In this document: positions 39,437-55,336 of the stretch, piece after piece
Numbering within the stretch: position 1 is the stretch's first letter
How the letters are laid out: each line of letters starts with the position of its first letter
IMG/VR virus record: IMGVR_UViG_3300002920_000044
Location: 19,344-83,343 of that record
DNA from: a virus
Length of the DNA: 64,000 bases
Reading direction: 5' to 3' (one strand)
The notes under the pieces: generated by a model
Seen by the model: only the letters and a program-made list of their open reading frames with translations
What the model was told of the DNA's origin: nothing
The model's database searches: none
Program-made: the position numbers and the translations under genes

Positions 39437-42145
39437 ATGTCATACGTTGATGCTATTTATGATTCTAGCAAAGAAAGAATCTATGTAGTAGAAAGAACCC
39501 CTGATGGTAAGAGAGAATACAAGGAATATCCAGTAAACTACGTATTTTACTATCCTGATCATAAGGGTAAGTATCGTAGTATTTACGGAGACAAACTTTC
39601 TCGCTTTTCTACTAGGAAAAAGCAAGATTTTGAAAAGGAAAAACGCATTCACGTAGGCAAAAAGCTGTATGAAAGCGATATCAACCCTGTGTTCAGGTGT
39701 TTAAGTGATAACTACTTAGATGTAGAACCCCCAAGACTTCATACATGCTTCTTTGACATTGAAGCGGACTTTGACCTCGAGAGGGGTTATGCTCCCACTG
39801 ACGATCCATTCAATCGTGTTACTGCGATAACTCTATACCTAGACTGGCTTGACCAAATTATAACACTGGCTCTTCCCCCTAGTTCAATGACTATGGAGAC
39901 TGCCAACGACCTTACTAAAGAGTTTGAAAATTGTCTACTCTTTGAGAGTGAGGTTGAAATGTTTGAAATGTTCTTTGCATTAATTGAAGATGCGGATGTT
40001 ATCACAGGCTGGAACAGTGAGGTATATGATATTCCTTACTGTGTCAATCGTGTTACCCGAATAATGAGTAAGGATGACACAAGAAAGTTCTGTTTACTTG
40101 ACCAGCTTCCCAGGATGCGCAAGTATGAACGTTTTGGTAAGGAAGAAACTACATACGACTTAGTAGGTCGAATTCATATGGACTATCTACAATTATACAA
40201 GAAATACAACTACGAAAGCAGACATAGTTATAGCTTAGATTATATTGGTGAAATGGAAGTAGATGAAAAGAAGACTCCATATGAAGGAAGCCTTCATCAG
40301 CTTTACAACCAAGACTTCAAGAAGTTTATTGAATATAATCGCCAAGATACCATGCTTATGGTTAAAATTCACAATAAGTTAAAGTTCCTAGACTTGGCTA
40401 ATGCTCTGGCTCATGAAAATACAGTTCTATTACCTACGGTTATGGGTTCAGTGGCTATGATTGAAATGGCTATTTACAACGAGGCCCATGCACGGGGGTT
40501 TGTTGTTCCTGATAAGAATAGAAGTGCAGAAGAAGAGCAACCAGCAGCTGGTGCTTACGTAGCAACCCCAATAAAAGGAATACACGAATGGGTAGGTGCA
40601 GTTGACATTAACTCACTATATCCATCTACGATCAGAGCATTGAACATGGCCCCTGAAACAATTATTGGTCAGGTTAGGCAAACCCTCACAGACAAATACA
40701 TTCAGGAAAAGGCTGTTAAGTTGGCCAAGAACAAGCGTAAGAAACGTAATAGTGATGACATAGATGTAGTGACCGGCGCAATTCTTTGGGAAGGGTTGTT
40801 TGGTTCGTTAGAATATACCGCCATTATGAACCAAGAACGAGGCACAATTCTCACTATTGACTATGAGGACGGCACAAGTGAAGAAAAGAGTGCGGCTGAA
40901 ATTTGGAAAATGATATTTGATAGCAACAACCCTTGGATGTTGTCTGCTAATGGCACAATCTTTACATATGAAAAAGAGGGAGTAATTCCCGGTTTGTTGA
41001 GTAGGTGGTATACAGAACGTAAGAGTATCCAGAAACAAGCAAAGGAAGCTTATGGAACTGGTATGTATGAATACTATGATAAGCGGCAACTTGTTAGAAA
41101 AATTCTTCTTAACTCAGCGTATGGCGCTCTTTTGAATGCCCACTGTAGATATTATGATAGACGTATTGGGCAGAGTGTTACGTTGACAGGTAGACAAATT
41201 GTAAAGCATATGATGAGTCAAATTAATGAAATCATTACTGATCAATATCAACATGACGGTGATGCTATTATTTATGGAGATACTGACAGTTGTTACTTTA
41301 CAATTTATCCAATGATAAAAGAACAAGTTGAAAAGGGCGAAATAAACTGGTCTAAAGAAGCCTGCATCAAACTCTATGACAATATTGCAGATGAAGTTAA
41401 TGACTCTTTCCCAGCGTTTATGGAACGTGCATTTCACTGTCCAAGAAAAAATGGGGCAATTATTAAGGCTGGAAGAGAACTAATCGGTGATCGTGCGCTG
41501 TTCATTGCCAAGAAACGTTACGCTATCAATATCTTCGATCATGAAGGAAAGCGTCAAGACATTGGTAAGTCTGGTAAGATTAAAGCTATGGGATTGGATC
41601 TCAAGAGAGCAGATACTCCCAAGTATGTTCAGAACTTCTTGATGGAAGTTCTTGGTATGACACTAGCTGGTCATGAAAGGGATGAGATTGTTGAGAAAAT
41701 TAGAAACTTCAAAAAATGGCTAAGCGAACAAGACAGTTGGACAAAAGGCTCTCCAAAAAGTGTCAACAAGCTTACTTATTATCATGAACAAGAAATTAAG
41801 AGCAAAACTGGTAAGGCAAATATGCCTGGCCATGTTAGAGGAGCATTGAACTACAACTATTTACGAAAAATGAATGGAGACAATTACAGCCAAAAAATTG
41901 TTGATGGTATGAAGGTTGTTGTATGTTCATTAAAGCCAAACCCTCTTGGATTTACAAGTATAGCCTACCCAACTGACGAACTAAGACTGCCCGAGTGGTT
42001 CAAAAAACTTCCGTTTGATGATGTCGATATGGAAGAAAAGCTAGTTGATAAAAAGATTGACAATTTGCTTGGTGTGCTTAACTGGCAGATTAATGAAGAT
42101 ATCATGACTAATAGTTCGGTCAACGACTTATTCAGTTTCGGATAA
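39437..42145 (+). CDS. Family B DNA polymerase (T4 gp43-like) with 3'-5' exonuclease
   Basis: FFDIEAD, GWNSEVYDIPY, YNRQD, DINSLYPS, KILLNSAYG, YGDTDS, KKRY and KAMGLDLKRADTP. Confidence 0.96.
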   Translation: MSYVDAIYDSSKERIYVVERTPDGKREYKEYPVNYVFYYPDHKGKYRSIYGDKLSRFSTRKKQDFEKEKRIHVGKKLYESDINPVFRCLSDNYLDVEPPRLHTCFFDIEADFDLERGYAPTDDPFNRVTAITLYLDWLDQIITLALPPSSMTMETANDLTKEFENCLLFESEVEMFEMFFALIEDADVITGWNSEVYDIPYCVNRVTRIMSKDDTRKFCLLDQLPRMRKYERFGKEETTYDLVGRIHMDYLQLYKKYNYESRHSYSLDYIGEMEVDEKKTPYEGSLHQLYNQDFKKFIEYNRQDTMLMVKIHNKLKFLDLANALAHENTVLLPTVMGSVAMIEMAIYNEAHARGFVVPDKNRSAEEEQPAAGAYVATPIKGIHEWVGAVDINSLYPSTIRALNMAPETIIGQVRQTLTDKYIQEKAVKLAKNKRKKRNSDDIDVVTGAILWEGLFGSLEYTAIMNQERGTILTIDYEDGTSEEKSAAEIWKMIFDSNNPWMLSANGTIFTYEKEGVIPGLLSRWYTERKSIQKQAKEAYGTGMYEYYDKRQLVRKILLNSAYGALLNAHCRYYDRRIGQSVTLTGRQIVKHMMSQINEIITDQYQHDGDAIIYGDTDSCYFTIYPMIKEQVEKGEINWSKEACIKLYDNIADEVNDSFPAFMERAFHCPRKNGAIIKAGRELIGDRALFIAKKRYAINIFDHEGKRQDIGKSGKIKAMGLDLKRADTPKYVQNFLMEVLGMTLAGHERDEIVEKIRNFKKWLSEQDSWTKGSPKSVNKLTYYHEQEIKSKTGKANMPGHVRGALNYNYLRKMNGDNYSQKIVDGMKVVVCSLKPNPLGFTSIAYPTDELRLPEWFKKLPFDDVDMEEKLVDKKIDNLLGVLNWQINEDIMTNSSVNDLFSFG

Positions 42146-42223: not shown

Positions 42224-42955
42224 ATGAAAGATCACTTATTAGATTTGATACAATACACACATGGCTTGGGCGTAATTGACCTTGTAAAGATTGAAGGAAC
42301 TTTAACTGAGACTAATATATCTGCATATTCTGACGACAAAAGCGTAATAGTGCAGGGTAGGTTCAATGAGGCAATTACTGATTTTGAGGGCACTTTTGGT
42401 ATGCCTAACTTGGCAAAGCTCAGGACAATTGTCAATTTTGATGATTATGATGATAATAGTATAATCACAGTTGTGAAGGAACAGCGAGATGGACAGGATG
42501 TTCCCGCAGCTATTCACTTTGAAACATCAGCTAAGGATTTTATCAATGACTATCGCTTAATGTCTAAAGCAGTGGTTCAAGATAAAGTAAAGAAGGTTTC
42601 CTTTAAGGGAGCAAATTGGAATGTAGAATTTGAGCCAACTATCCCTGGAATTATGCGTCTGAAAAAGCAGGCTCAGGCTAATAGCGAAGAAGATACCTTT
42701 AAGGTCAAGACCGACGGCACAGACTTGAAGGTATATTTTGGTGATCATTCAACACACTCTGGAAACTTTGTTTTTCAAACTAATATCAACGGTACATTGA
42801 CTAAGCCCTGGAAGTGGCCCGTAAAAGTATTCTTGGCTATAATGGACCTTCCTGGTAAAAAGACTGTTCGTTTCAGTGACGATGGAGCAGCCGAAATTGT
42901 AGTTGAGAGTGGTTTTGCAACTTATACTTATCTACTACCGGCGCTTACAAAATGA
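42224..42955 (+). CDS. Sliding clamp (T4 gp45-like)
   Basis: 243 aa, alternating beta/alpha pattern, C-terminal YTYLLPA, directly downstream of PolB; cognate clamp loader present at 15304. Confidence 0.65.
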   Translation: MKDHLLDLIQYTHGLGVIDLVKIEGTLTETNISAYSDDKSVIVQGRFNEAITDFEGTFGMPNLAKLRTIVNFDDYDDNSIITVVKEQRDGQDVPAAIHFETSAKDFINDYRLMSKAVVQDKVKKVSFKGANWNVEFEPTIPGIMRLKKQAQANSEEDTFKVKTDGTDLKVYFGDHSTHSGNFVFQTNINGTLTKPWKWPVKVFLAIMDLPGKKTVRFSDDGAAEIVVESGFATYTYLLPALTK

Positions 42956-43155
42956 TTGCACATGTAGTATCTAAACTATATTGTCACCTAATAGAATGAT
43001 ACAGAAAGTTTCAAGAATAAACTCAGGATGTGCTGAAGTATTTATAGGAAATAGCTGGGTTATACTGTCTAGTGGTAGTATAGGCGTGGGATAAAGTCTA
43101 GAAGCCCAAAGTCTTTTAGGTTGGGTATGTAAAAAGAAACAACAAGAAGAAAAAT

Positions 43156-44718
43156 TTGAAAGAGATGATTAATCAAGTAAATCTTTCTGAAAAACATAAT
43201 TCTGAATGGGCATTATTCTTGCCAGCACTATCTTCTTTTTATATTGCAGGATTGGGCAAACAGAGAGAGGGTGAGGAATATTTTGAAAAAAATCGTATTC
43301 CCCAAGCCTTCCCCAACAACAGTGTAGAATGTTTGAACTTCTTGAATAGCAAAGAAGGGCTGTATACTTATAAGTGGGCACTCTACTCAGCAGGTCACGC
43401 CAATTTAGATATTACCAAAGATGACGCTAATGAAAGCATTATCAGAAAGAGAGAAAAAGGAACCTTTTTGTTGGGGGATTCGGGAGGGTTTCAAATACTT
43501 AAGTGTCAATGGCCGGCTGATTGGAAAGATCCTAACTGCCCCCGTGCAATGAAAAAGCGTCAACAAGTTCTTACTTGGATGGATGAATACATGGACTATG
43601 GCATGTGTTTAGACATTCCTTCACAATCATTAACAACTTATCATATTATAGATAAAAAAACTGGTAGATCTGCGCACGGCATTAAGACAATTCAAGATGC
43701 GATTACTGCTACACATATCAATAATGAATACTTTATTAACAATCGTGACGGTCGTTGTAAGTTTTTAAACGTTTTACAAGGTCGTAATCATAAGCAGTCT
43801 GATGACTGGTATAATGAAATGAAAAAGTATTGCGATAAACGTATATATGGTGATAAAGCATTTAATGGGTGGGCGCTAGGTGGACAAAACAAAATTGACA
43901 TTCACCTAATGCTTAAAAGACTAGTCAACATTATTCATGATGGATTTTTAGAGCCCGGTGAACAGGATTTGATTCACTGCCTAGGTACTAGCATTATGGA
44001 GTATGCTTTACTTTTTACTGATATACAGAAGGCTATCAGGAAATATCACAACCCTAATCTACAAATCACATACGACTGTGCAAGCCCATTCTTTGCGGCT
44101 GCTAAGGGTCTAGCCTATTACAACAACACGTTTGGGCATGATACCAAGTGGACGTATGCTATGGAAAAGACTGCCGAAGATAAGAAGTATGCAAGTGATA
44201 CTAGGAAATTTAGTGACGGATGTTTAGAAGACGGTATTCATGCTAAATTCACTGACAGTCCCGTAACTGATTTACTAATGATGAAGGATATTTGCTATCG
44301 TGGCCATGGCTTTATAGGTCAGCACGGTAAAGAAACTAAAACAAGCTGGGACACATTATCATATACTCTAATACAATCGCATAACGTATACCAGCATATA
44401 TCGGCTGTCTTAGAAGCCCAAAAACGTTATCAACAGGGCGAAAAGCCCTCGATGCTTCATCACAACTATCTTAACTTCAGTGAGATTATTGACGAAATTT
44501 TCTCAATGAAAAATCAACAGAAAAGCCTAGATATGATTGACAAATACGACAGACTTTGGCAACAGTTTAAGGCAGGCCAGGGCTTTAGCGGTAAGAAAGC
44601 AGTCAACGCACATACTCAATTTTCTAACCTGTTTGAGTTCGCAGAAGACGTATCTGATCCAGAATTTGATGAAGAAATTATCGATAGTGATGATTTAATG
44701 ACAGAAGTTATAGATTAA
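43156..44718 (+). CDS. dpdA: TGT-fold DNA guanine transglycosylase, DpdA-like
   Basis: LGDSGGFQ, CLDIP, NVLQG, GWALGG, IHCLG and YDCASP retain the TGT catalytic Asp positions; FolE, QueD and QueE lie nearby. Confidence 0.75.
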   Translation: MKEMINQVNLSEKHNSEWALFLPALSSFYIAGLGKQREGEEYFEKNRIPQAFPNNSVECLNFLNSKEGLYTYKWALYSAGHANLDITKDDANESIIRKREKGTFLLGDSGGFQILKCQWPADWKDPNCPRAMKKRQQVLTWMDEYMDYGMCLDIPSQSLTTYHIIDKKTGRSAHGIKTIQDAITATHINNEYFINNRDGRCKFLNVLQGRNHKQSDDWYNEMKKYCDKRIYGDKAFNGWALGGQNKIDIHLMLKRLVNIIHDGFLEPGEQDLIHCLGTSIMEYALLFTDIQKAIRKYHNPNLQITYDCASPFFAAAKGLAYYNNTFGHDTKWTYAMEKTAEDKKYASDTRKFSDGCLEDGIHAKFTDSPVTDLLMMKDICYRGHGFIGQHGKETKTSWDTLSYTLIQSHNVYQHISAVLEAQKRYQQGEKPSMLHHNYLNFSEIIDEIFSMKNQQKSLDMIDKYDRLWQQFKAGQGFSGKKAVNAHTQFSNLFEFAEDVSDPEFDEEIIDSDDLMTEVID

Positions 44719-44789
44719 CCAAAACAATTGAATAATAACTAAAGAACTATTAAGATAATAATTATCGACAACAACTAAAGTTAGCACAA

Positions 44790-45194
44790 ATGGATAATAC
44801 AAACAGAAACATAAGTAATTGTAAAAGAATGATTTGGGTCACTTTTCAGAAAGAAGGAATACATAAATATCCCGAAGCCATTAATGATCCTTTAATAGCC
44901 ACCGGTGATGAATATGACGTTAGTTTTTTGGGTTACCCACATCGTCATATATTTCATTTCAAAGTAGCTATCCAAGTAGATCACTCTAACAGAGATATAG
45001 AATTTATACAATTTAAACGGTGGTTGGAAAATCTTTATGGCAACAAAATATTAAACCTGGATTTTAAGTCATGTGAGATGATAGCAGAAGATTTATATAG
45101 AATTATTTCTACCAAATATCCTAATAGAGAAATTCAAATATCAGTTAGTGAAGACGGTGAAAATGGTGCTGAGCTAACCTTTACTCTACCATAA
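44790..45194 (+). CDS. QueD/PTPS-like T-fold paralogue (candidate DpdL-type)
   Basis: GIHKYP...YPHRHIFHFKV...RDIEFIQFKRWL...SCEMIAEDL...VSVSEDGENG; has the HxH metal motif but lacks the QueD CxxxHG motif. Confidence 0.65.
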   Translation: MDNTNRNISNCKRMIWVTFQKEGIHKYPEAINDPLIATGDEYDVSFLGYPHRHIFHFKVAIQVDHSNRDIEFIQFKRWLENLYGNKILNLDFKSCEMIAEDLYRIISTKYPNREIQISVSEDGENGAELTFTLP

Positions 45195-45271
45195 AGATGT
45201 TCTATAATAATAGAAAACTTGACCCTTTTAATTAAAATCAAATAATATTAACACATTATGGAGAAAATAAA

Positions 45272-45487
45272 ATGTCAACCGACAAAACAGTAGCACAGAT
45301 TTTTGATGACCTAGATAATCTACGTAAATTTTGTGTAGAATTTGGTTATAAATTCAATGAAAAGGATTTGTATGATAAGAAGTCATATATCTTCAAGCAA
45401 TTTCAGAAATTCCAAACTGGAAAAAAGGTCAAGAATCAGTGGGACATTGACAAAGCCAACTTCAAAGCCAAGCAGTTAGGTATTTAA
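45272..45487 (+). CDS. Small hypothetical protein in the modification cluster
   Basis: 71 aa, GGAG RBS, between the QueD paralogue and a glycosyltransferase. Confidence 0.6.
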   Translation: MSTDKTVAQIFDDLDNLRKFCVEFGYKFNEKDLYDKKSYIFKQFQKFQTGKKVKNQWDIDKANFKAKQLGI

Positions 45488-45488
45488 T

Positions 45489-46670
45489 ATGAGAACGTTG
45501 TTTTATTGCCAACTTGAACCGTATAATTCTCGGTACACTCTTCAACTTACAGAATGGAATCGTAGGGTCTTTGAACGTAGAAATATCAATGTAGTATATG
45601 TTCCGGGCGAAACTCTTGATTCTAGTCAACAGATTAGTGTTGGACAGGTTCTTGATGCTCATGGCAGGTCATACTTTGCTATGAGTCAAATAATGAACTT
45701 GGTAAAGATGATGCGCGAGGGCAAGGTTACTTCTGAGGATGTGATTTTCTTTGAAGATATGTTTCATCCAGGTTTTGAATCCTTACCTTACATTATTAAC
45801 CAAATACCTGAAACAATGCGTCCTAGAATCTATGTACGCTGTCTGGCACAAACCATTGACCCTGATGATTTTATTCATGTATGGAACATGGATCGTTGGA
45901 TGCGACAGTATGAAAAAATGGTTTGTTCCAGTGTAACGGCTATTTTAGCTAGCAATGAAGAAATGGTAGCTAATATGAAGGTTGCTGGTTGGGACGTTCC
46001 CATTTATAATGTAAGTGGTCTTGCGTTCAACATTGATGAGGTTCTTGAGCGAGTTGATAACTACGTAGTTCCCTTTTCTTCTAGAAGGATGAGAGTAGTA
46101 TTTGGTGCAAGATGGGATCAAGAAAAGCAACCTGATTTCTATATGGATTTGATTGAAGCCTGGAACGAAAAGTTCCCAAGCAAAGAAGTTGAGTTTGTGT
46201 TGTGCAGCGGCAGCAAACTCAAGTCTAATAATAGTTCATATATGGAGAGAACACGGTGTATGGCAGAAAGCGGCAAGCTTATCATTTATGATAACCTACA
46301 GAAAAACCAGTACTATGAAATCTTAAATAATTCCAGAGTATTATTTAACTGTGCATTACAGGACTGGACTAGTAATACAGTAAGTGAAGCAGACGCTTTG
46401 GGTTGTAACGTCCTATTTCCGGCATATCGTTCCTTCCCTGAAATATTCGCTAATGACTACGAAAGAATGTATATACCTTGGTCTATAGATGACGCCATCA
46501 ATAAGCTTGACAATCTTTTAAAGAAGCCCCATAAGAACATGGGCAAAATTAGTAATTGGACAAATGGCACTGTTGACCGTATTTGTGATATTCTTGAGGG
46601 AAACGGCGAACAATGGCGAAGAAATACTACTGATTATCGCAAACACATAAGAGAGTATAAATATCAATGA
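45489..46670 (+). CDS. GT-B fold glycosyltransferase
   Basis: VFGARWDQEKQP...LFNCALQDWTSNTVSEADALGCNVLFPAYRSFPE resembles the GT4 nucleotide-sugar-binding E-x7-E region. Confidence 0.7.
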   Translation: MRTLFYCQLEPYNSRYTLQLTEWNRRVFERRNINVVYVPGETLDSSQQISVGQVLDAHGRSYFAMSQIMNLVKMMREGKVTSEDVIFFEDMFHPGFESLPYIINQIPETMRPRIYVRCLAQTIDPDDFIHVWNMDRWMRQYEKMVCSSVTAILASNEEMVANMKVAGWDVPIYNVSGLAFNIDEVLERVDNYVVPFSSRRMRVVFGARWDQEKQPDFYMDLIEAWNEKFPSKEVEFVLCSGSKLKSNNSSYMERTRCMAESGKLIIYDNLQKNQYYEILNNSRVLFNCALQDWTSNTVSEADALGCNVLFPAYRSFPEIFANDYERMYIPWSIDDAINKLDNLLKKPHKNMGKISNWTNGTVDRICDILEGNGEQWRRNTTDYRKHIREYKYQ

Positions 46671-47050
46671 TTACTAGAGAAAACTGGAAAGGCTATGTAG
46701 GTTATCAGCCTGTGTCAAAACCTGATTCACAAAAGGCAATAATCTCATACCTAGATTTTGCTTCTAGTAGCACAAACAGCATGGAATTTCGTATAAATTC
46801 AACCAAAATTCCTGTTGATCAAATTACATTGACAGAGGATGAACTGGTCATAGAAATAAACTCACAGTTAAGAGCTTTTGGCACTGTCAAACTTTCTGAA
46901 GGGCAGTTGAGAGAAAACGAGTTAATTAGAGCAAAGAATAGCTGTGATCAGAAAAACTGCCAGGGTAAGCCAAATATAAACATCAGCAATATCTGGTTTT
47001 ATAAGGGAAAACAAGATATGGATGCTCCTCACATTGTAACCGAGCACTAG
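46667..47050 (+). CDS. Hypothetical protein
   Basis: 127 aa ORF coupled to the GT gene. Confidence 0.5.
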   Translation: MITRENWKGYVGYQPVSKPDSQKAIISYLDFASSSTNSMEFRINSTKIPVDQITLTEDELVIEINSQLRAFGTVKLSEGQLRENELIRAKNSCDQKNCQGKPNINISNIWFYKGKQDMDAPHIVTEH

Positions 47051-47195
47051 AACAAGTTTTATCTATTCAAACATCCAAAGTTTGGTAATTACAGATTCAT
47101 AATAGAAAATGAAACAATATAAGTCAGAGATAATTATTACTGGAGAAACAGATGAATTTTGAGATTCTGTTTCAGATAAGTGTTAGAGAGAAGCA

Positions 47196-48257
47196 ATGAA
47201 GGTTGAAGCAGTTACTAAGTTAGACTTTGGCAATGTTCTTATAAAACCCAGATACTCTACTTTAAAGAGCAGAAAAGACGTTAATTTGAATGTAACTTAT
47301 ACTTTCAAGCACTCAGGAATAACTTGGACAGGCATCCCCATTATAGCAGCAAATATGGACGGTGTGGGGACTGTTGAAATGGCAATAGCCCTTCAAAAAA
47401 TGAATATGCTTACTGCATTAGTAAAAACCACCCAAGAAATACCAATAGAGCTTAACCATAACAATTATGTCATAAGTACTGGAATTAATAAGAACGACTA
47501 CGAAAGACTTAAAGTTTTAATGTCCTCTGCAACAGAACATAGATTTATCTGTATTGATGTTGCTAATGGCTATAGTCAGAATTTTCTCAATTATATTTCT
47601 AAGGTAAGAGAAAAATATAAGACTTTAGTTACTATCATGGCAGGTAACGTAGTCACGCCAGAAATGGCACAGATGGTTATTAATGCTGGAGCTGATATTG
47701 TTAAGATAGGTATTGGTTCGGGGGCGGTATGCACAACTCGTATTCAAACAGGCATAGGATACCCCCAACTTTCGGCTATAATAGAATGTAGAGAAGCAGT
47801 GCACCAACTTAGTGCTCATATCATATCAGACGGCGGTTGTACCTGCCCGGGTGATGTAGCTAAGGCGTTTGGTGCAGGCGCTGATTTCGTTATGCTTGGA
47901 TCGTTGTTCGCAGGGCACAATGAGGGCGGGGGAGAAATAATTTCAAAATCTTTCCGAACAAACCATTATGTAAAGGGAGTACAGCAATGGAACAACGAAG
48001 ATTATGTACAATTTTACGGTATGAGCAGCGAGACAGCTATGAAGAAGCATCACGGGGGCGTAGAAGATTATCGTAGTAGTGAGGGCAGAACAATAGAAGT
48101 TAAGTATAAAGGTCCGGTAGAAAATACAGTTAAAGATTTGCTCGGTGGAATTCGTAGTAGCTGTACTTACGTAGGAGCCAAAAATCTATCAGAGTTGTAT
48201 GATAAGACTACATTTATTAAAGTGAATAAACAATTTAATGAGTTATTTGTCAAATAA
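47196..48257 (+). CDS. guaC: GMP reductase
   Basis: KPRYSTLKSRKDV, PIIAANMDGVG, CIDVANGYS, GIGSGAVCTTR..TGIGYPQLSA, DGGCTCPGDVAKAFG, FYGMSS and YRSSEG. Confidence 0.93.
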   Translation: MKVEAVTKLDFGNVLIKPRYSTLKSRKDVNLNVTYTFKHSGITWTGIPIIAANMDGVGTVEMAIALQKMNMLTALVKTTQEIPIELNHNNYVISTGINKNDYERLKVLMSSATEHRFICIDVANGYSQNFLNYISKVREKYKTLVTIMAGNVVTPEMAQMVINAGADIVKIGIGSGAVCTTRIQTGIGYPQLSAIIECREAVHQLSAHIISDGGCTCPGDVAKAFGAGADFVMLGSLFAGHNEGGGEIISKSFRTNHYVKGVQQWNNEDYVQFYGMSSETAMKKHHGGVEDYRSSEGRTIEVKYKGPVENTVKDLLGGIRSSCTYVGAKNLSELYDKTTFIKVNKQFNELFVK

Positions 48258-48268
48258 AGGAAACTATT

Positions 48269-48538
48269 ATGATGACTATCGACGAAGTATTTGAAGAAAT
48301 AAAAAGAGAAAGAGCATACCAAGAAAACAAGTGGGGCAATTTTGAGCAACATCCTCAGTCTTTGCCCGGGTATCTTTTGATTATGAAAAAAGAATTAGAA
48401 GAGGCCGAAGACGGCTGGATGAAAAACTCAACAGGCAGAAACCATGTATTACACGAAATTTTGCAAGTAGCTACTGTTGCAATTGCCTGCTTAGAGGAAC
48501 ATGGAAATAAAAGTTATTTGGGAAACAGCGATAAATAA
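48269..48538 (+). CDS. MazG-like all-alpha NTP pyrophosphatase
   Basis: ERAYQENKWG...KELEEA...HEILQVATVAIACLE (ExxE...ExxQ pattern). Confidence 0.5.
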   Translation: MMTIDEVFEEIKRERAYQENKWGNFEQHPQSLPGYLLIMKKELEEAEDGWMKNSTGRNHVLHEILQVATVAIACLEEHGNKSYLGNSDK

Positions 48539-48539
48539 A

Positions 48540-48610
48540 GATGTAGCACAAAGGCTACATCCTGAGAGAAATCTCCGTTGAGCGTAAACGTTAGACGCTA
48601 CGAAAGGAAA
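48540..48610 (+). ncRNA. Candidate structured 5' leader of folE
   Basis: 8 bp stem gatgtagc/gctacatc, GAGA-GAAA-TCTC GNRA hairpin and agcgt/acgct stem, packed into about 70 nt before the AAGGA RBS. Confidence 0.5.
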
Positions 48611-48615
48611 CAACA

Positions 48616-49290
48616 ATGAGTTACAATAGAGTTAAAACTGATCCAGAGTTGGGCCAAAGAGTTCATAATTATTTGGTTAAAATGGGTGTTGAAACCCCTG
48701 TCATAGAAAATAATCTAAGCAGAACTACTAAAATTGAAATCATCCAACAAAAATTTGCAGACATTATGGAAACACTGGGCTTGGATCTAAGTGACGATAG
48801 CTTAGCTGACACTCCTAAGCGTGTGGCCAAGATGTATGTGGGTGAGATTTTTTGGGGATTAGATTATGATGCATTCCCCAAGTGTACCACTGTAGATAAC
48901 AAGATGCATTATGATGAAATGGTAATTGAACGCAACATAATTGTTATGAGTAACTGTGAACACCACTTTATTACCATCGATGGGCTAGCAACAGTAGCAT
49001 ACGTTCCAGACAAGAAGGTTCTTGGCTTGTCAAAGATTAACAGAATAGTAGAATATTTTGCAAAAAGACCTCAGATACAGGAACGTTTGACCGAGCAGAT
49101 ATTCCATGCATTGTGTTATATTCTAGAAACTGATAATGTTGCAGTTATGATTGACGCTAAGCATTATTGCGTAGCTAGCAGGGGCGTAGAAGATACTGGT
49201 TCTAGGACTATCACTAGCAAGTTAGGCGGTGGATTTAAGTCTGACCCGGCAGCTAGAGCAGAGTTCTTGAGCATAGCCAAGCAGCGTTAA
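48616..49290 (+). CDS. folE: GTP cyclohydrolase I
   Basis: TPKRVAKMY, SNCEHH, GLSKINRIV..FAKRPQIQERLT and HYCVASRGV. Confidence 0.95.
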   Translation: MSYNRVKTDPELGQRVHNYLVKMGVETPVIENNLSRTTKIEIIQQKFADIMETLGLDLSDDSLADTPKRVAKMYVGEIFWGLDYDAFPKCTTVDNKMHYDEMVIERNIIVMSNCEHHFITIDGLATVAYVPDKKVLGLSKINRIVEYFAKRPQIQERLTEQIFHALCYILETDNVAVMIDAKHYCVASRGVEDTGSRTITSKLGGGFKSDPAARAEFLSIAKQR

Positions 49291-49546
49291 TCTTGGCTTT
49301 TTCAATTTCACCTTGTTATTATTTTTTATGCTTAGAAAGATATTCTGACAAAATGATATATTGACTAACCTGTCTTCAAGATGCCCAAAAAATATTGAAT
49401 TGGATAAAGTAACGTGATAATATAAAATGGGAAAACTAGTAGTAAAGATAAGCTTAATATTGATTTGAGTTGTTGTTTTTTATTTCATGATTTAGAAGAT
49501 GTGTAGTAATTAATCTTAAATTTTAATCTTAAATTAAAGAAGGATA

Positions 49547-49888
49547 TTGAATATGGGAAAGTTTTTTAGTTTTTACGGATTAGCTCAGCGTAGTGAATAC
49601 TGGGCTGTTATGTTAATCTTAATTGTATCTAGTTTCTTTTTAGGTTTCGGCGTTGGCGGGTTATTACTCTCTGACAACACGATAATTTTAGGATTGATAC
49701 TACTCTTGATACTAACAGTTATCTCAGGTTGGGTAATACTGGCAACTACCGCCCGTCGTTGTCGTGACGCAGGCATCAGTCCTTACTGGTGTCTAGCATT
49801 GTTAGTTCCTTATGTTAGCCTCGTTGCCACGATAGTGTTCGGCGTAATCCCTACTAATACTATACAGCATACACAGGATTTTGAATGA
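49547..49888 (+). CDS. DUF805-family membrane protein
   Basis: FSFYG...RSEYW, hydrophobic helices, ARRCRDAGISPYW (compare RRLHD.G.SGW). Confidence 0.7.
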   Translation: MNMGKFFSFYGLAQRSEYWAVMLILIVSSFFLGFGVGGLLLSDNTIILGLILLLILTVISGWVILATTARRCRDAGISPYWCLALLVPYVSLVATIVFGVIPTNTIQHTQDFE

Positions 49889-50100
49889 ACTATGAACTTG
49901 ACTTACACGGAGTAAAGCACCAAGATGCTGACCGAGAAGTAGAGAATTTTGTTTATATTAATCAGCAAAATTTTCCTATCAGGATAATTTGCGGTAATAG
50001 CCATAAAATGGTTGGTATCACACAGTCAGCACTTGAAAGAATTGGTTGTGAATATACAATGTATAGGTATGGTGTAATTACAGTAAGTAAATTTAAATGA
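49885..50100 (+). CDS. Smr-like domain protein
   Basis: LDLHG...A...VENF...IRIICGNS. Confidence 0.6.
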   Translation: MNYELDLHGVKHQDADREVENFVYINQQNFPIRIICGNSHKMVGITQSALERIGCEYTMYRYGVITVSKFK

Positions 50101-50786
50101 CTAAAGAAATCAAATCCAACAGGTCTACAGCAGTAGTTCAAAAAAGAATTGAACCTAAGACAGGTCTTGACGATTTCCCTACTCCTCCTTGGGCTACTAG
50201 GGCGTTATGCGAGTGGCTATTATCGAAAAATATTGCCATTAACACAATGACTGTTAGAGAGCCGGCCGCAAATAGGGGCCATATGGCAAAGCCCTTATCT
50301 GAATTTTTCAAGACAGTTGAAGGCTCAGATGTTTATGATTACGGGTATGGCTTTTCAGTCAAGAACTTTATAACAGAAGAGGATTTTAGTGAAGTTGATT
50401 TTACTATCACTAATCCTCCCTTTATTTTAGCAAAAGACTTCATAGAAAAAGCTCTTAGAACAAGCAAAGTGGGAGTAGCAGTTATTGTTAGGCTTGCTTT
50501 TATTGAGGGTAAAGACCGATATAATTCTTTGTTCAAAGAAAACCCTCCCACATACCTTTTACAACATGTAGAACGTGTAGGAATATGTAAGGGTACAATC
50601 AAGAAAGACGTAGCCGCAGCAACAGCTTATTGTTGGCTAGTGTGGCTAAAAGACCGAAAAAATGAAGAAACCAAGATAAATTGGATTGAACCTTGCAAAG
50701 AACGTCTTGAAAGAGAAGACGACTATCATACAGAAACAGTTTCCCCAGAATTATCAAATTACAGTATTTTGTTTAAAGAAGAATAA
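50097..50786 (+). CDS. DNA N6-adenine methyltransferase-like protein
   Basis: DDFPTPPWAT, REPAANRGHM (motif I variant), ITNPPF (motif IV) and RLAFIEG. Confidence 0.75.
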   Translation: MTKEIKSNRSTAVVQKRIEPKTGLDDFPTPPWATRALCEWLLSKNIAINTMTVREPAANRGHMAKPLSEFFKTVEGSDVYDYGYGFSVKNFITEEDFSEVDFTITNPPFILAKDFIEKALRTSKVGVAVIVRLAFIEGKDRYNSLFKENPPTYLLQHVERVGICKGTIKKDVAAATAYCWLVWLKDRKNEETKINWIEPCKERLEREDDYHTETVSPELSNYSILFKEE

Positions 50787-50841
50787 AAAATGTCTTTATA
50801 TGATACAAATTGTTTGTTATAATTATTCAAAGGATTGATAA

Positions 50842-51339
50842 ATGATAGCAAGAACATATAAATATACATCTACCAAAGAATACCATGATGCTTTCCCTTG
50901 TGCATATAGGCAATGGCGAGCAGATAGTCACTGTAATCTAATACATGGCTATAGTTTCAATTTTAAGTTCTACTTTGGTGCAGATACACTAGACGCTAGA
51001 AATTGGTGCGCAGATTATGGCGGGCTTAGAGATTTGAAAGCAATTCTTGAAGACCAGTTTGATCACACACTCTTAGTAAGTCAGGACGATCCAGAATTAG
51101 AAACCTTCAAGCTTCTCCAAGAAAAGAAAATGGCCAAGCTAACGATAGTTCCTGCAACTGGCTGTGAAGCTATAGCTGATATGCTTTATAGATACGTAAA
51201 CGGTGTTTATATTCCTGATCATTGGGGACAGGGAGAGGCAGATAGGCTTTGGTGTTATAGGGTTGAAGTTCGTGAGACACAAAGTAATATGGCTTTCAGA
51301 GAAGGCCATCGTGAATGGAATGAGTCTTTGTTAGGTTAA
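50842..51339 (+). CDS. queD: 6-carboxytetrahydropterin synthase
   Basis: SHCNLIHGY, DYGGLRDLK..LEDQFDHTLL, GCEAIA and VEVRET. Confidence 0.88.
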   Translation: MIARTYKYTSTKEYHDAFPCAYRQWRADSHCNLIHGYSFNFKFYFGADTLDARNWCADYGGLRDLKAILEDQFDHTLLVSQDDPELETFKLLQEKKMAKLTIVPATGCEAIADMLYRYVNGVYIPDHWGQGEADRLWCYRVEVRETQSNMAFREGHREWNESLLG

Positions 51340-51581
51340 TTTCTGCAATTTTATTAATGTAGAGAAACAACTAAAAAGGTTTTGAAATTTTTCAGTTGAA
51401 TAACTATTCACATAAAAGAACCAACATGAACAATAAACTAGAAAAATTAGACTAGTATTGCAATTAAACTACACTGGGCATTCAGTTTGTCCAGCATAGC
51501 TGAATTAATTGATGTAGTAGAAGAACTTATATGACAAATAAATTGTCCATGAAACGGGGAAGAAAGGTGATAGGGGAAAAT

Positions 51582-52073
51582 ATGCTTAAACAAGTTTTTT
51601 ACACAGATAAAGACATAGACGGAATGGTACATGATATCATTCGTTCTTTGGCCAAAGAAAATTGGAAGCCTGACTATATAGTTGGTATAACTAGGGGTGG
51701 GTTAATTCCTGCTATCTATATTAGTCATTATTGTGACATTAAGATGGAAACATTGAAAGTAAGTATTTTGTCTGACGATTGTGAAAGCAACTGCTGGATG
51801 GCAGAAGATGCATTTAATGGTAAGAACATTCTTATTATTGATGACATAGTTGATAAGGGTAAAACATTTAATTGGATAAAAGAAGATTGGCAATCTATGT
51901 GTTTTCCTGATGACCCAAAGTGGAAAAATATTTGGCACAATAATGTCAAGTTTGCTTCTTTGATTTACAATGAAGCATCTGAATTTCCAGTTGATTTTTA
52001 TTCAGAAAGCATCAATAAAGTAGAGAATCCAGTTTGGATTACCTACCCCTGGGAGAAGTGGTGGCGGGCGTGA
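51582..52073 (+). CDS. Type I purine phosphoribosyltransferase (Gpt/Xpt-like)
   Basis: IVGITRGGLIPA, ILIIDDIVDKGKT (PRPP-binding loop) and WITYPWE; probable ATG at 51582. Confidence 0.85.
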   Translation: MLKQVFYTDKDIDGMVHDIIRSLAKENWKPDYIVGITRGGLIPAIYISHYCDIKMETLKVSILSDDCESNCWMAEDAFNGKNILIIDDIVDKGKTFNWIKEDWQSMCFPDDPKWKNIWHNNVKFASLIYNEASEFPVDFYSESINKVENPVWITYPWEKWWRA

Positions 52074-52245
52074 TATTTCTTGAGGTTAGAAATATCAACC
52101 TTTAGTCTACTCTTAACCCAACCAGAAGAAATTTCCTTAGGTAAGAAACGCTTTTCTTATGTTTCATTTTGTTTCTTGTTAAAATTAGAGTAGTTAGGCT
52201 GTTGTCTTCTGCCTAAATATAAGGTGAAGGTAAAAAGTAAAATAC

Positions 52246-52280
52246 TTTCTCTTTGTATAAATAACACTATACAAGAGAAA
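52246..52280 (+). promoter_or_regulatory. RBS-sequestering hairpin containing a late promoter, upstream of the HNH gene
   Basis: 13 bp stem with one bulge, tttctc(t)ttgtata / tatacaagagaaa; TATAAATA at 52256-52263; ATG at 52283. Confidence 0.7.
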
Positions 52281-52282
52281 TA

Positions 52283-53575
52283 ATGATTAACTTACACTAT
52301 AAAAACAGATACGACAAATTTATTACTTCTATCAAGTCTCAACCAAATAGAGATATTAGCAAAACATATACAGAGTTTCATCATATCCAGCCCAGATGTC
52401 TCAAGGGAAGTGATGATCCTGATAACTTGATTGAGTTAACGTTAAGAGAACATCATTTGGCACATTGGCTATTATGGAAATCATATCCAGACTATTTACC
52501 AATTGCAAGTGCATTTTTGCAAATGAACAACAAGAATTTTAAGAGTAACAAGAAATTCAAGCCTCTTCCAAGCAAAGTGTATGAAACCCTCAAGACAGAG
52601 ACATATAAAATGTTAAGTGAACTCAAGACAGATAAAGTCTATGTAAGAGATAAGGCTGGTAATCTTATAGAAATGTCTAAAAAAGAATATGCTGAACAAG
52701 AAGAGCTAAAATTTCATACTACAGGAAAGCTCGTAGTATTTGACCGTGAGGATAATATATACAAGTCTATTACTACAATAGAATACTATTCTAATAAGCA
52801 TCGCTATGTTACTAACGTAGGAGCGGGAGTAGGAGAAATCAATCCTGAAAAATGCAGATATAAATTTAAGGACATAGAAACAGGTAATATAGTCAAAATA
52901 ACAAAAAAAGACGCAAGAATATACAATAAGCAGGCAGGATACAAGAGATATAAGCAGATAATTAAACAGAAAATACCTGTTATTGATAAAGAAGGTAATA
53001 AATCACTTGTTGAGGTAGACCAATATTATAAAGGAAATTATAAACATTATAATTCAGAAACCGTTACCGTCTATGATAAACACTTACAGCGTAATAGGTC
53101 TATTACAAGAGAAGAATACTACACTGATCCAAATAGGTATGACACTTCTACTAAAGGAAAAGTAGTGGCAAAAAATTCAGTTGGAGAAACTGTTTTGGTA
53201 GATAAGGAAGATTTTGCTTCTGGTAAGTATGTAGGTCATACAAAAGGGCTAAGAACCATGTATGATGTTGATACTGGCAAATATAAACAGATAACAGAAA
53301 AAGAATGGTTGAACAATAAAAACAGATATACAGGCCCAAACAAGGGTAAAATTAATGTTATCAACAAACACACTGGTGTAAGAGAGCAAATTGACAAAAA
53401 AGACTTTGATTCGTCTGTTTATCTTAGTTTAGGTGCACATTCATACTTGTTTAGGGCAAGAAATAAGTTGACTAATAAAGAGAAAAACATTAATATATAT
53501 GAATGGGACTTAGTAAAAAATCAGTATGATATTATTGACATAGAGCAATTTAATAATGCGATGAAGAAAAAATAA
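52283..53575 (+). mobile_element. Free-standing HNH homing endonuclease (Mob-like) with repeated C-terminal DNA-binding modules
   Basis: EFHHIQPRCLKGSDDPDNLIELTLREHHLAHWLLWK, then about 8 repeats like KG.V.V.D..G....I...EY.....Y. Confidence 0.85.
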
Positions 53576-53590
53576 AAGAAAGGTAAATCA

Positions 53591-54469
53591 ATGGCTAATG
53601 GTAATTCGAACCTTATTAAGGTATCGGAACTTTTTTTTTTTTTTTCAATCCAGGGTGAAGGCCGATATATGGGCGTCCCCAGCATTTTTCTAAGAACCTT
53701 TGGTTGTAATTTTAAATGTTTAGGATTCGGGATGCCTAAAGGACAACTGAGTGATGAAGTTGATAAGATCAATCCAGCAGAATATAATTCATATGACCAG
53801 CTTCCTCTCGTTAGTACTGGATGTGACTCGTATGCCGCGCATAATCCTCGCTTTAAGCATCTTTCTCCCAGCAGGGACATTGATACTCTTGTTAGTGATA
53901 TTATGGAATTGTTACCGTTCAAAGAATGGCGAGACGAACACCTCGTTATTACGGGAGGAGAACCACTCTTAGGTTGGCAAAGAGCATATCCTAACTTGTT
54001 AAATCACAATAATATGCATGGACTAAAAGAGTTGACCTTTGAAACTAACGGTACTCAACCCCTACGCAAAGACTTTGCTGAATATCTTACAACATGGGTA
54101 GCGACCGGCGCAGATAATTTTAATATTGAAAGAGAAGTTACCTTCAGCGTAAGTCCCAAACTATCTGTGAGTGGTGAGCTAAGGCAGAATGCCATCAAGC
54201 CTCATGTCGTGGCAGAATACGAGAAGATCGGGTATACCTATCTTAAGTTTGTTATCGCAACAGAAGAAGATGCCAACGAAGCACTTGAGGTAACAAATCT
54301 TTATCGTCAAGCAGGTGTTAAGGGTCCAGTTTATTTCATGCCCGTGGGCGGCGTCGAGGAAGTCTATAACCTTAACAGTCAAAATGTAGCAGAGCTTGCT
54401 ATGAAATATGGCGTTAGGTATAGTGACAGACTGCATATTCCTCTATGGGGCAATCAGTGGGGAACCTGA
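53591..54469 (+). CDS. queE: 7-carboxy-7-deazaguanine synthase (radical SAM)
   Basis: SIQGEG..G.PSIFLRTFGCNFKC...CDS, VITGGEPLL, ETNGT and SVSPK; T15 run near the 5' end. Confidence 0.9.
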   Translation: MANGNSNLIKVSELFFFFSIQGEGRYMGVPSIFLRTFGCNFKCLGFGMPKGQLSDEVDKINPAEYNSYDQLPLVSTGCDSYAAHNPRFKHLSPSRDIDTLVSDIMELLPFKEWRDEHLVITGGEPLLGWQRAYPNLLNHNNMHGLKELTFETNGTQPLRKDFAEYLTTWVATGADNFNIEREVTFSVSPKLSVSGELRQNAIKPHVVAEYEKIGYTYLKFVIATEEDANEALEVTNLYRQAGVKGPVYFMPVGGVEEVYNLNSQNVAELAMKYGVRYSDRLHIPLWGNQWGT

Positions 54470-54472
54470 TAA

Positions 54473-55336
54473 ATGAACCTTGAAAGAATGTATGTTATAT
54501 CCTGGTTCGGTGACGACGAAGTTCGCCAAAAAAGAATTGATTATCATAACAAGCAAATAGACTGGGCTATAAAAAATGGCCTCTCTGTATATGTATTAGC
54601 GCAAGGTTATACGACCCGAGATTATCGTGAGGATGTTACTTACATAGAGTATTCTTCGGAAAAACTGCTTTTACCTGCCGAAGCCAGAAATTATTTGTTG
54701 AGACATTTTTACGCTAGTGATTGCGACTATGCAATTATAGCAGATAACGATAGTGTGTTACATGAAGGCGAACAACACTGTGACAGCAGGGACTTTGTTT
54801 CACTATTCAATACTATCCCATTATCAAGTCTCAGTGAGGTTGATTTCTTTTTTCCATTGAATCCTGCAAAAATTCCTTTCAATAAAACATTTATTGAAAA
54901 CAAGGATTTATATGATAACTTTTTGGTGTTCAAGAGAAATGTGGACAGTAAGGGAAGCTTTTGTGTTGTAAAGAACTTCCAGAAGCACTACAATAATCCA
55001 ATTTTCTACGATGAAGTCAGTTTTATGACAGAGGATAGAAAAATTATTACCCACGAAGATGTAGACTTTGGCCTTAATATCATCGCAAATGGGTATGGAT
55101 GCTACATGCTTACCAATATTGTATTGAAGGAATATGCTTCTTCGGCTAGCACATGGGCCAACAATGAGCGCGGAGAAGTAATGCTTCATGGAAAAGAAAT
55201 CATAAAGAACAAGTATAATCTTGTTCAAAACAAACAGGGACATTTGCAATATAAGTCTCTATATCAAAAATCAACGCGACCAAATAAAGTTCTAGTTCCC
55301 AAGCATTCACATCCATTATTTGAGATAGAGCCGTGA
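54473..55336 (+). CDS. Putative GT-A-like glycosyltransferase
   Basis: PAEARNYLL..FY....DYAIIADND (DxD) and HEDVDF; coupled to a sugar epimerase gene. Confidence 0.5.
   Translation: MNLERMYVISWFGDDEVRQKRIDYHNKQIDWAIKNGLSVYVLAQGYTTRDYREDVTYIEYSSEKLLLPAEARNYLLRHFYASDCDYAIIADNDSVLHEGEQHCDSRDFVSLFNTIPLSSLSEVDFFFPLNPAKIPFNKTFIENKDLYDNFLVFKRNVDSKGSFCVVKNFQKHYNNPIFYDEVSFMTEDRKIITHEDVDFGLNIIANGYGCYMLTNIVLKEYASSASTWANNERGEVMLHGKEIIKNKYNLVQNKQGHLQYKSLYQKSTRPNKVLVPKHSHPLFEIEP

Follow-up and report, generated by a model that had tools for sequence, protein, structure and literature searches.

Gene content and conservation of the cluster

The stretch of viral DNA analysed here (the window) comprises 64,000 nucleotides, positions 19,344 to 83,343 of the IMG/VR record IMGVR_UViG_3300002920_000044, and encodes between positions 42,224 and 54,469 a set of enzymes related to the synthesis of 7-deazaguanine bases and their insertion into phage DNA, including GTP cyclohydrolase I (FolE), QueD, QueE, a transglycosylase of the DpdA type and the QueD paralogue DpdL. 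It belongs to a 100,163-bp virus contig with a completeness of 29% (CheckV). Because the largest relatives of this contig reach 333 kb and the family B DNA polymerase (PolB) of the window is closest to the polymerases of the jumbo phages Phosso, Atu_ph07 and RaK2 (42-47% identity), these comparisons identify the contig as a piece of a jumbo phage genome of roughly 330 kb.

Every real gene located between 39.4 and 57.3 kb of the window is on the + strand. The series begins with the gene encoding PolB (39437..42145; Pfam DNA_pol_B, 3.1e-38), followed by that of a 243-residue sliding clamp of the PCNA/gp45 type (42224..42955), a protein with no Pfam match that was identified by comparison of its Atlas model with the PCNA and gp45 clusters (TM 0.74-0.77). 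The clamp gene sits between PolB and DpdA in all related loci. Next is the gene of the DpdA-like transglycosylase (43165..44718 from an ATG, 517 residues; an upstream TTG at 43156 would give 520 residues), assigned by fold and motifs to the tRNA-guanine transglycosylase (TGT) superfamily, and 71 nt past its end starts the dpdL homologue (44790..45194), which encodes a QueD/PTPS T-fold paralogue of 134 residues. Downstream are a conserved 71-residue open reading frame (orf71, 45272..45487) that gave only a weak DUF7615 match and separates the dpdL and glycosyltransferase genes in almost every related locus, a GT-B (GT4-like) glycosyltransferase of 393 residues (45489..46670), GMP reductase (GuaC, 47196..48257; NCBIfam NF003470, 470 bits vs a cut-off of 397) and FolE (48616..49290; Pfam 6.3e-61, and 324.8 bits, above the cut-off, in NCBIfam). 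These are followed by QueD (CPH4 synthase, 50842..51339), recognized by its Cys-xxx-His-Gly-Tyr motif, a Pfam PTPS match (8e-17) and its alignment with phage QueDs; a 6-oxopurine (Gpt/Xpt-like) phosphoribosyltransferase (PRTase, 51531..52073; Pfam Pribosyltran 3.7e-10, and purine/xanthine-guanine PRTases of the PDB at 5.5e-9 to 1e-5); and QueE (53591..54469), the radical SAM synthase of 7-carboxy-7-deazaguanine (CDG). The latter was matched by Pfam Radical_SAM and, below their cut-offs, by five QueE models of NCBIfam (best 2.5e-12), and is homologous to the annotated QueE of Pseudomonas phage PA5oct, encoded at an equivalent position.

The order PolB-clamp-DpdA-DpdL-orf71-glycosyltransferase-(GuaC)-FolE-QueD-PRTase-QueE was fixed in ~80 related IMG/VR loci, GuaC being present in roughly four in ten of them, and because of this recurrence the arrangement is not due to chance. 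Compared by megablast with 50,697 phage records, the 12-kb region gave no match. An earlier annotation made from the letters alone (the sequence-only reading) had named the clamp, dpdA, the QueD paralogue, FolE, QueD and QueE in this region, with dpdA right after the clamp; all of them are borne out here, on the + strand, and the layout is kept in the relatives. That reading correctly listed the pathway genes but left out the conserved glycosyltransferase and PRTase, both relevant to the identity of the final base.

DpdA and its C-terminal peptide

The 517-residue protein was not recognized by sequence searches: no Pfam, PHROG or NCBIfam family was matched at E <= 0.01, including the Pfam TGT family (PF01702), and phmmer and a 54-sequence profile run against the PDB sequences produced chance matches only and no TGT. 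As described for DpdA3 and DpdA4 (PMC10516641), this invisibility is a limit of sequence detection. An AlphaFold model for which 54 diverse relatives were used (predicted local distance difference test, pLDDT, 88.9; predicted template modelling score 0.89) retrieved TGT enzymes in all of the top 50 Foldseek matches (E about 1e-7). In VIA comparisons it was similar to the TGT of T. maritima (2ash; Z 19.2, rmsd 4.3, 303 aligned residues) and to archaeosine TGT (ArcTGT, 1iq8; Z 18.9), with ~305 residues aligned and model residues 11-433 covered.

Residues S75, D105, S106, G108, D150, P152, N202, H271 and D304 were invariant in the 54 representatives. The conserved blocks DSGGFQ (containing D105), LDxP, NVLQG, HFLG and YDxSSP (containing D304, in YDCASP) presumably correspond, at the level of motifs, to the Asp102, Asp156, Gln203, LMGVG and Asp280 (nucleophile) blocks of TGT enzymes. 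The blocks DSGGxQ, xDxP, HxLG and SYDxS could be aligned with the DpdA2 of Vibrio phage nt-1, and the catalytic Asp blocks also with the DpdA of Acidovorax phage ACP17.

A profile of the family was compared with members of the DpdA1, DpdA2 and DpdA3 subfamilies (E-values scaled to 1000 sequences). The best match was the DpdA of PA5oct (E 1e-150), followed by those of ACP17 (2.5e-8), nt-1 (DpdA2; 1.4e-6 over ~335 positions), the homologue of Synechococcus phage BUCT-ZZ01 (3e-6), the DpdA2 of Vibrio phage VH7D (3.3e-6) and a protein of Xanthomonas phage X1 annotated as 'queuine tRNA-ribosyltransferase' (0.003); the match with phiST DpdA3 was marginal (0.03) and that with the DpdA1 of Enterobacteria phage 9g not significant (10). 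In a separate search of whole records, nt-1 and VH7D were again found by their DpdA2 genes. By profile, the DpdA of the window is thus nearest to ACP17 DpdA and the DpdA2 group and not to the DpdA3 of phiST, a phage group in which the modified base has been measured. Based on this proximity to ACP17 DpdA and to the validated DpdA2 enzymes, together with the modelled fold, the protein is considered a DpdA in the broad sense, a member of the TGT superfamily, in agreement with the sequence-only reading. Its placement among the named subfamilies is only approximate, DpdA2 being the nearest of the three compared. The sequence comparisons delineate a large family of its own, separate from the named subfamilies compared, with 796 clusters at 50% identity (E <= 0.001) and >5,500 clusters at 90% identity among scored candidates.

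The DpdA2 enzymes of nt-1 and VH7D are validated DNA transglycosylases that insert 7-cyano-7-deazaguanine (preQ0) or 7-aminomethyl-7-deazaguanine (preQ1), the nt-1 enzyme inserting preQ0. By analogy with them, DNA would be the substrate of the DpdA of the window, to which they are similar in motif blocks and size (458-464 residues). They differ from it in being paired with QueC (in nt-1 the gene is flanked by folE and queC) and in their low level of modification, reported as <0.1% of G for the nt-1-type group.

Evidence on where the enzyme may act came from its C-terminus. The replicative polymerases (gp43) of T4 and RB69 carry a C-terminal clamp-binding peptide, and a crystal structure of the RB69 clamp-peptide complex exists. 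The PolB of the window ends in N-D-L-F-S-F-G (about 42122-42142), which by position and type we take to be the equivalent of that tail. A candidate clamp-binding peptide resembling it, F-S-N-L-F-E-F (44620..44640), is present in the C-terminal tail of DpdA, a region modelled as disordered (flanks with pLDDT <50 on both sides). As in gp43, the peptide is short, C-terminal, of the hydrophobic/acidic L-F-x-F type, located behind a disordered linker and accompanied by a gp45/PCNA-like clamp; unlike in gp43, it belongs to a base-exchange enzyme and is followed, in the group of this phage, by an acidic tail.

The likeness between both tails extends to other lineages, each pair having its own version. 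The related loci have STFDDLFSFG at the end of PolB and HTMFDQLFSV in the DpdA tail, and the corresponding pairs (polymerase and DpdA, respectively) are SLESLFG and SLEELFG in X1, SLDDLFE and TLDELFE in ACP17, FDSLFGW and FNSLFDV in PA5oct, TLDDFFS and SLDSFFD in BUCT-ZZ01, and NKMFTF and MKLFDF in the JGI metagenome contig L109, which encodes a 50%-cluster relative from another branch of this DpdA family. The comparison covers six lineages; of three contigs looked up for further pairs, two lack the polymerase end. The summed identity of the cognate pairs was 30, whereas all 265 derangements averaged 17 and reached 25 at most. Within the DpdA family a motif of the clamp type was present in 39% of the tails vs 2.3% of equal-sized windows of the protein body and 6% of shuffled tails.

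A complex of three copies of the clamp with DpdA residues 466-520 was predicted with a score of 0.52 (0.48, 0.53 and 0.52 in individual runs), the best of three controls scoring 0.00, with a contact agreement between runs of at least 46% and a pLDDT of the partner of at least 40. Of the solved complexes, 51 of 78 attained the mark applied, as did 2 of 108 mismatched pairs; passes at 0.60 or lower accounted for only five of those 78 complexes and for all four mismatches that passed, meaning that predictions in this range are often wrong. In addition, clamp-peptide complexes are among the solved structures, and for this reason the result may partly reflect likeness to them. As dpdA directly follows the PolB and clamp genes and the tail of its product copies the clamp-type peptide of the polymerase, the enzyme is probably tethered to the clamp, a proposal for which the sequence evidence is good and the structural evidence weak. 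The coupling of modification to replication that the sequence-only reading had guessed from gene order alone gains support from the co-variation of the two tails. A literature search turned up no report of a connection between DpdA and the clamp.

Two known systems are of interest in this respect. The DpdA2 of nt-1 (the only tail of the nt-1/VH7D pair that was read) does not resemble the tail of its polymerase, TLESFFG; this, together with the low modification in that group, fits the tether idea, as a correlation only. Phage 9g, the DNA of which contains deoxyarchaeosine (dG+), has the same order of polymerase, clamp, dpdA and synthesis genes (FolE, QueD, Gat-QueC, QueE) as the window and a DpdA1 that ends in a peptide of the LQDLFDE type; unlike the window, it encodes Gat-QueC and no DpdL, and its DpdA1 has 317 residues and is not matched by the family profile.

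Both DNA methyltransferases of the window (50097-50786 and 58388-59134) end in L-F-K-E-E or L-F-E-E-E. Motifs of this kind occur in the last 30 residues of eight of the 114 open reading frames of the contig, PolB and DpdA among them, compared with 3.3 expected (p about 0.01), suggesting that other DNA-modifying enzymes of this phage may be clamp clients as well.

DpdL, QueC and the glycosyltransferase

DpdL was described as a QueD paralogue in which the CxxxHGH motif is changed to LxxxHRHxF, present in phages that encode DpdA, FolE, QueD and QueE and lack QueC (Cui et al., 2023, PMC10516641). The protein encoded directly after dpdA reads L-GYP-HRH-I-F, in which Leu replaces the Cys that is catalytic in QueD. 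In an alignment of DpdLs, L47, H51, H53 and F55 were invariant, and H51, H65, E96 and E121 were invariant across DpdLs and QueDs, H53 being so among the DpdLs. The protein shared 53% identity with the DpdL of ACP17 (tblastn, 3e-34) and only 35% with that of phiST (1e-9). An alignment of seven DpdLs with seven QueDs in hhalign gave a probability of 75.5% (E 2.4e-5, 97 columns); the window protein had no Pfam PTPS match at E <= 0.01. The signature and these identities assign the 134-residue QueD paralogue to DpdL, as the sequence-only reading had proposed from its HxH and missing Cys. In Vibrio phage Bakedbeans (L106:11191-12372), DpdL is the C-terminal part of an open reading frame of ~390 residues (annotated gene, 383 residues), preceded by an N-terminal domain of ~260 residues.

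QueC, which DpdL would replace, was searched for in the whole contig. The QueC model (PF06508) had no match in its 100,163 bp, and the same search found QueC in 13 of 14 control genomes; no SGGxDS PP-loop motif was present in any of the six frames of the contig. The sole match for QueF was sub-threshold and located inside folE, a T-fold cross-match that was discarded as QueF. Thus, the absence of QueC and QueF noted earlier for the window holds for the window and for the 100-kb contig but may not extend to the whole genome, given the completeness of the contig and a sub-threshold match in its relatives. This match corresponds to a PP-loop protein of ~320 residues in three large relatives (G001-G003), with 15-21 bits over positions 1-60 of the model for QueC. 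In the 333-kb relative G001 (92% complete) it is a PP-loop ATPase of 327 residues with the motif SGGMDSE (L084:1327-2310) that scored 20.9 bits vs a cut-off of 22 over 58 of 210 model positions. Its resemblance to the QueC of nt-1 is confined to the surroundings of the PP-loop (26% identity over 65 residues). It was matched by nothing in PHROGs or the PDB and lacks a homologue in the contig of the window, though its gene is only ~17 kb downstream of dpdA in G001. On these grounds it was rejected as evidence for QueC; it may conceivably be a divergent amidotransferase.

These observations bear on the proposal that QueC or a QueC-like amidotransferase is encoded in the unsequenced 70% of the genome, that the DNA contains the deoxynucleosides of preQ0 (dPreQ0) or 7-amido-7-deazaguanine (dADG), and that DpdL has another role. 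The incompleteness of the contig and the PP-loop protein of the relatives speak for it, and so does contig L109, in which another branch of the DpdA family is accompanied by a true QueC. However, in this contig QueC is inside the cluster, next to FolE, that is, DpdA relatives that use QueC keep it there; the complete 286-kb genome of PA5oct has no QueC match; and the PP-loop protein shows the poor resemblance described above. Considering all this, such a hidden QueC is highly improbable. As QueC was found neither in the contig nor in PA5oct, and the QueC-using branch retains it in its cluster, the substitution of QueC by DpdL looks real from the sequences at hand. In L109 (1911-8430) DpdA also follows the clamp, and the cluster includes QueC, FolE, inositol-1-phosphate synthase, ADP-ribosylglycohydrolase and a phosphoribosyltransferase, a different deazaguanine pathway that is possibly elaborated too.

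Chemical data are available for two systems with which the window can be compared. In the phiST phages, which encode DpdL and lack QueC, the deoxynucleoside of 7-deazaguanine (dDG) replaces all dG (PMC10516641), and dDG was also measured in Vibrio phage VP1 (bioRxiv 10.1101/2025.10.29.685425). By analogy with both, the expected base in the DNA of the phage studied here is most likely dDG. Like the window, the phiST system combines FolE, QueD, QueE, a DpdL with LxxxHRHxF and a TGT-superfamily DpdA without QueC (PMC10516641), and a related purine PRTase is encoded elsewhere in the phiST genome. Unlike the window, phiST has a DpdA3 of only 259 residues, carries MazG and a kinase-like ATPase and no GT-B enzyme in the cluster, and uses a Pol III alpha polymerase.

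Closer in gene content are ACP17, X1, PA5oct, BUCT-ZZ01 and the Sinorhizobium phage Phosso, which share the core genes and have a GT-B enzyme beside DpdL; together with the group of the phage studied here they define the DpdA-glycosyltransferase-DpdL cluster type. The DpdA tail resembles that of the cognate polymerase in X1, ACP17, PA5oct and BUCT-ZZ01, and PA5oct also has the PolB-clamp-DpdA order, with a DpdA 32% identical to that of the window. The DNA of PA5oct is refractory to restriction enzymes whose recognition sites include G, and nucleases directed at modified G attack it (PMC12191111). In contrast to these similarities, the DpdAs of the cultured phages of this type are very divergent from that of the window (with the exception of PA5oct, E 1e-8 to 1e-3), and the DpdA homologue of Phosso is encoded ~170 kb from the cluster. 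A 177-residue protein annotated as 'glycosylase' occupies the slot after the clamp in Phosso (L104 11379-11912), and in PA5oct the polymerase gene is split by a homing endonuclease.

The glycosyltransferase was modelled with AlphaFold 2 with moderate quality (pLDDT 69). Its model matched many GT4 enzymes in VIA, with Z from 18.6 to 16 and all within ~2 Z units, including the DNA-bound T4 alpha-glucosyltransferase and a tetrahydrobiopterin glucosyltransferase (5zer, Z 17.1), as well as Swiss-Prot entries in Foldseek at 1e-10. The acceptor cannot be read from such a generic GT4 fold match. An Atlas cluster lead to a tRNA-queuosine mannosyltransferase was dropped, no direct match having backed it. 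In sequence, profile matches adjoin DpdL in BUCT-ZZ01 (3e-203), X1 (2.5e-20), ACP17 (3e-17), PA5oct (7e-14) and Phosso (7e-11); none was found in the loci of phiST, RHph_I1_18 or Bakedbeans. A short-chain dehydrogenase (SDR) of the nucleotide-sugar epimerase type (55333..56001; Pfam Epimerase 1.5e-32, PHROG 540 1.1e-40), also represented by an SDR-like gene in the PA5oct cluster, possibly supplies this enzyme.

This raises the question of whether the final base is plain dDG. In one alternative the GT-B enzyme, perhaps fed by the SDR, adds a sugar to a 7-deazaguanine derivative, either as the free base or in DNA, and DpdL is maybe not a simple decarboxylase. The fixed position of the gene in the ~80 related loci and beside DpdL in five cultured phages, the full GT-B fold with a DNA-modifying and a pterin-modifying enzyme among its matches, and the failure of ACP17 dpdL and dpdA alone to yield dDG, in which case the authors suspected missing enzymes and did not mention the glycosyltransferase (PMC10516641), are all consistent with it. 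On the other side, 7-deazaguanine has no obvious hydroxyl that could act as sugar acceptor, phiST makes dDG without a glycosyltransferase, the fold match is generic and derives from a model of moderate quality, and no published nucleoside analysis was found for the cultured phages of this cluster type (ACP17, X1, PA5oct, BUCT-ZZ01 and Phosso). Such a derivative is rather unlikely, although it is the main alternative. The more specific combination, in which a clamp-tethered DpdA swaps guanine at the fork and the glycosyltransferase yields a sugar-bearing 7-deazaguanine, undescribed in any DNA, in this cluster type, is proposed with considerable doubt.

The pterin-related match also touches a reading in which phage DNA is unmodified, either because the TGT-fold protein acts on tRNA or because FolE, the PTPS-family enzyme, the SDR and the glycosyltransferase make a pterin glycoside. 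The TGT fold is common to tRNA enzymes, and cyanobacteria make biopterin glucoside with an equivalent set of proteins (FolE, an enzyme of the PTPS family, an SDR and a GT4 enzyme); 5zer is among the fold matches. Nevertheless, QueE commits the pathway to a deazapurine, neither tRNA genes nor Rfam families were detected in the window, the nearest characterized relatives of the transglycosylase (DpdA2) act on DNA, the DNA of PA5oct behaves as modified at G, and a polymerase-like clamp peptide is sensible only for a DNA-acting enzyme. Taken together, this makes an unmodified phage DNA scarcely credible.

Purine metabolism, proposed pathway and significance

Among 50,697 phage genomes, homologues of the PRTase were found in only 15 records, including the phiST group, the immuto phages, BUCT-ZZ01, PA5oct and two Brevundimonas phages (of which MaInes was examined); the homologue-bearing phages that were examined carry FolE and QueE genes. 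In the immuto phages and MaInes the PRTase gene is next to FolE with nucleotide kinases near, and in the former a nucleoside triphosphate (NTP) pyrophosphohydrolase is near as well. Two genes for enzymes acting on nucleotide pools were located on the contig ~10 kb before the window, a MazG pyrophosphohydrolase (7887-8327 of L103, contig C1; Pfam 2.9e-9) and a T4-type deoxynucleoside monophosphate (dNMP) kinase (10489-11157 of the same; PF21448, 1.3e-15).

It can be argued from these genes that the deaza base enters DNA as a nucleotide, the PRTase joining CDG or 7-deazaguanine to phosphoribosyl pyrophosphate, kinases and ribonucleotide reductase producing deaza-dGTP, MazG and GuaC depleting guanine nucleotides, PolB incorporating the analogue and DpdA acting in clean-up only. 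The biosynthesis of tubercidin and toyocamycin offers a precedent, as it employs a PRTase acting on CDG or preQ0 and a homologue of GMP reductase. In addition, the PRTase is conserved in the cluster, its few phage homologues come in part from fully substituted phages (the phiST group and immuto 2-6A) and also from BUCT-ZZ01, PA5oct and MaInes, it occurs in such phages beside FolE, QueE, NTP pyrophosphohydrolase and nucleotide kinases, and the contig encodes MazG and the dNMP kinase. Conversely, the catalytic motifs of DpdA are kept across the 54 representatives and its polymerase-like peptide fits a DNA-acting enzyme at the fork; the loci of ACP17, X1 and Phosso that were examined yielded no homologue of the PRTase; guanine salvage accounts for the PRTase equally well; and MazG and dNMP kinases are common in large phages. 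Incorporation from the nucleotide pool appears improbable and is a weaker rival than a glycosylated derivative.

Based on the available evidence, the module is better explained as a DpdL-type 7-deazaguanine DNA-modification system of a jumbo phage, which includes CDG synthesis, DpdL, a clamp-tethered DpdA and guanine salvage and has most likely dDG as its product, an interpretation that we consider probable. In this pathway FolE, QueD and QueE would convert GTP into CDG, according to the established functions of their families, and DpdL would decarboxylate CDG to 7-deazaguanine, as predicted in the literature. DpdA, tethered to the clamp as the co-variation of the motifs and the weak complex prediction suggest, would then exchange G for the deaza base in freshly replicated duplex DNA. 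The guanine released may be salvaged by the PRTase and returned to GTP for FolE or, in this phage, drained to IMP by GuaC. The final base would most likely be dDG, which the conserved glycosyltransferase may decorate further.

Several points weigh against this interpretation. The absence of QueC holds for the contig and not for the genome, because the former is only 29% complete, and the relatives carry the PP-loop ATPase, which belongs to no recognized family and is QueC-like, below threshold, at its N-terminus. The decarboxylase activity of DpdL is a prediction of the literature, and co-expression of dpdL and dpdA in E. coli, with genes of either phiST or ACP17, produced no dDG, the authors suggesting that further enzymes are needed (PMC10516641). 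The GT-B enzyme adjoins DpdL in several lineages, and its retention at this place implies that the end product of the cluster type may be other than plain dDG. The equivalence of the DpdA residues with the catalytic Asp102 and Asp280 is deduced from sequence motifs, and clamp binding from sequence motifs and a weak prediction.

Further genes are encoded in the region. A DUF805 protein and one of the DNA methyltransferases are encoded, in this order, between FolE and QueD, and an HNH homing endonuclease (52283..53575; PHROG 655, 2.3e-27) between the PRTase and queE. After queE are the genes of a 287-residue protein with no assigned function (54473-55336), which ends in L-F-E-I-E-P, of the SDR, and of UvdE, the last before ~57.3 kb. 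The methyltransferase, orf127 and orf287 were found in none of the ~80 related loci and the homing endonuclease in one only; the latter looks like a mobile insertion outside the pathway. A run of 15 T near the start of queE (53630-53645) encodes E-L-F-F-F-F-S-I-Q-G-E-G and is in frame at present; a single-base slip in it would inactivate CDG synthesis. Elsewhere in the contig (16653-18272, minus strand) a 539-residue protein with a NUMOD3 motif gave a near-threshold match to Mom (25.9 bits vs a cut-off of 27.1), which may indicate a second, adenine-directed DNA modification.

The DpdA-DpdL-FolE-QueD-QueE core is an architecture already published (Cui et al., 2023, PMC10516641), and is in this regard less of a novelty than the sequence-only reading presumed. 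What goes beyond the literature reached is the large separate DpdA lineage, the polymerase-like clamp peptide of DpdA that co-varies with the polymerase, and the conserved GT-B and PRTase partners, neither glycosyltransferase nor phosphoribosyltransferase being mentioned in PMC10516641.

DNA containing 7-deazaguanine shields phages from restriction enzymes and is the target of newly found defence nucleases and glycosylases. Considering the size of the DpdA lineage, with its 796 clusters at 50% identity and metagenomic copies numbering in the thousands, the DpdL route is common in uncultured jumbo phages, in which standard annotation is blind to DpdA, the key enzyme of this route. If the clamp-tethering peptide is confirmed, it would explain how an exchange enzyme supposed to act after replication attains high or even complete replacement, and base-exchange enzymes would join the clients of the sliding clamp. 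Finally, the conserved glycosyltransferase and PRTase are candidates for the 'missing enzymes' that blocked the reconstitution of dDG, and cultured phages carrying both are available.

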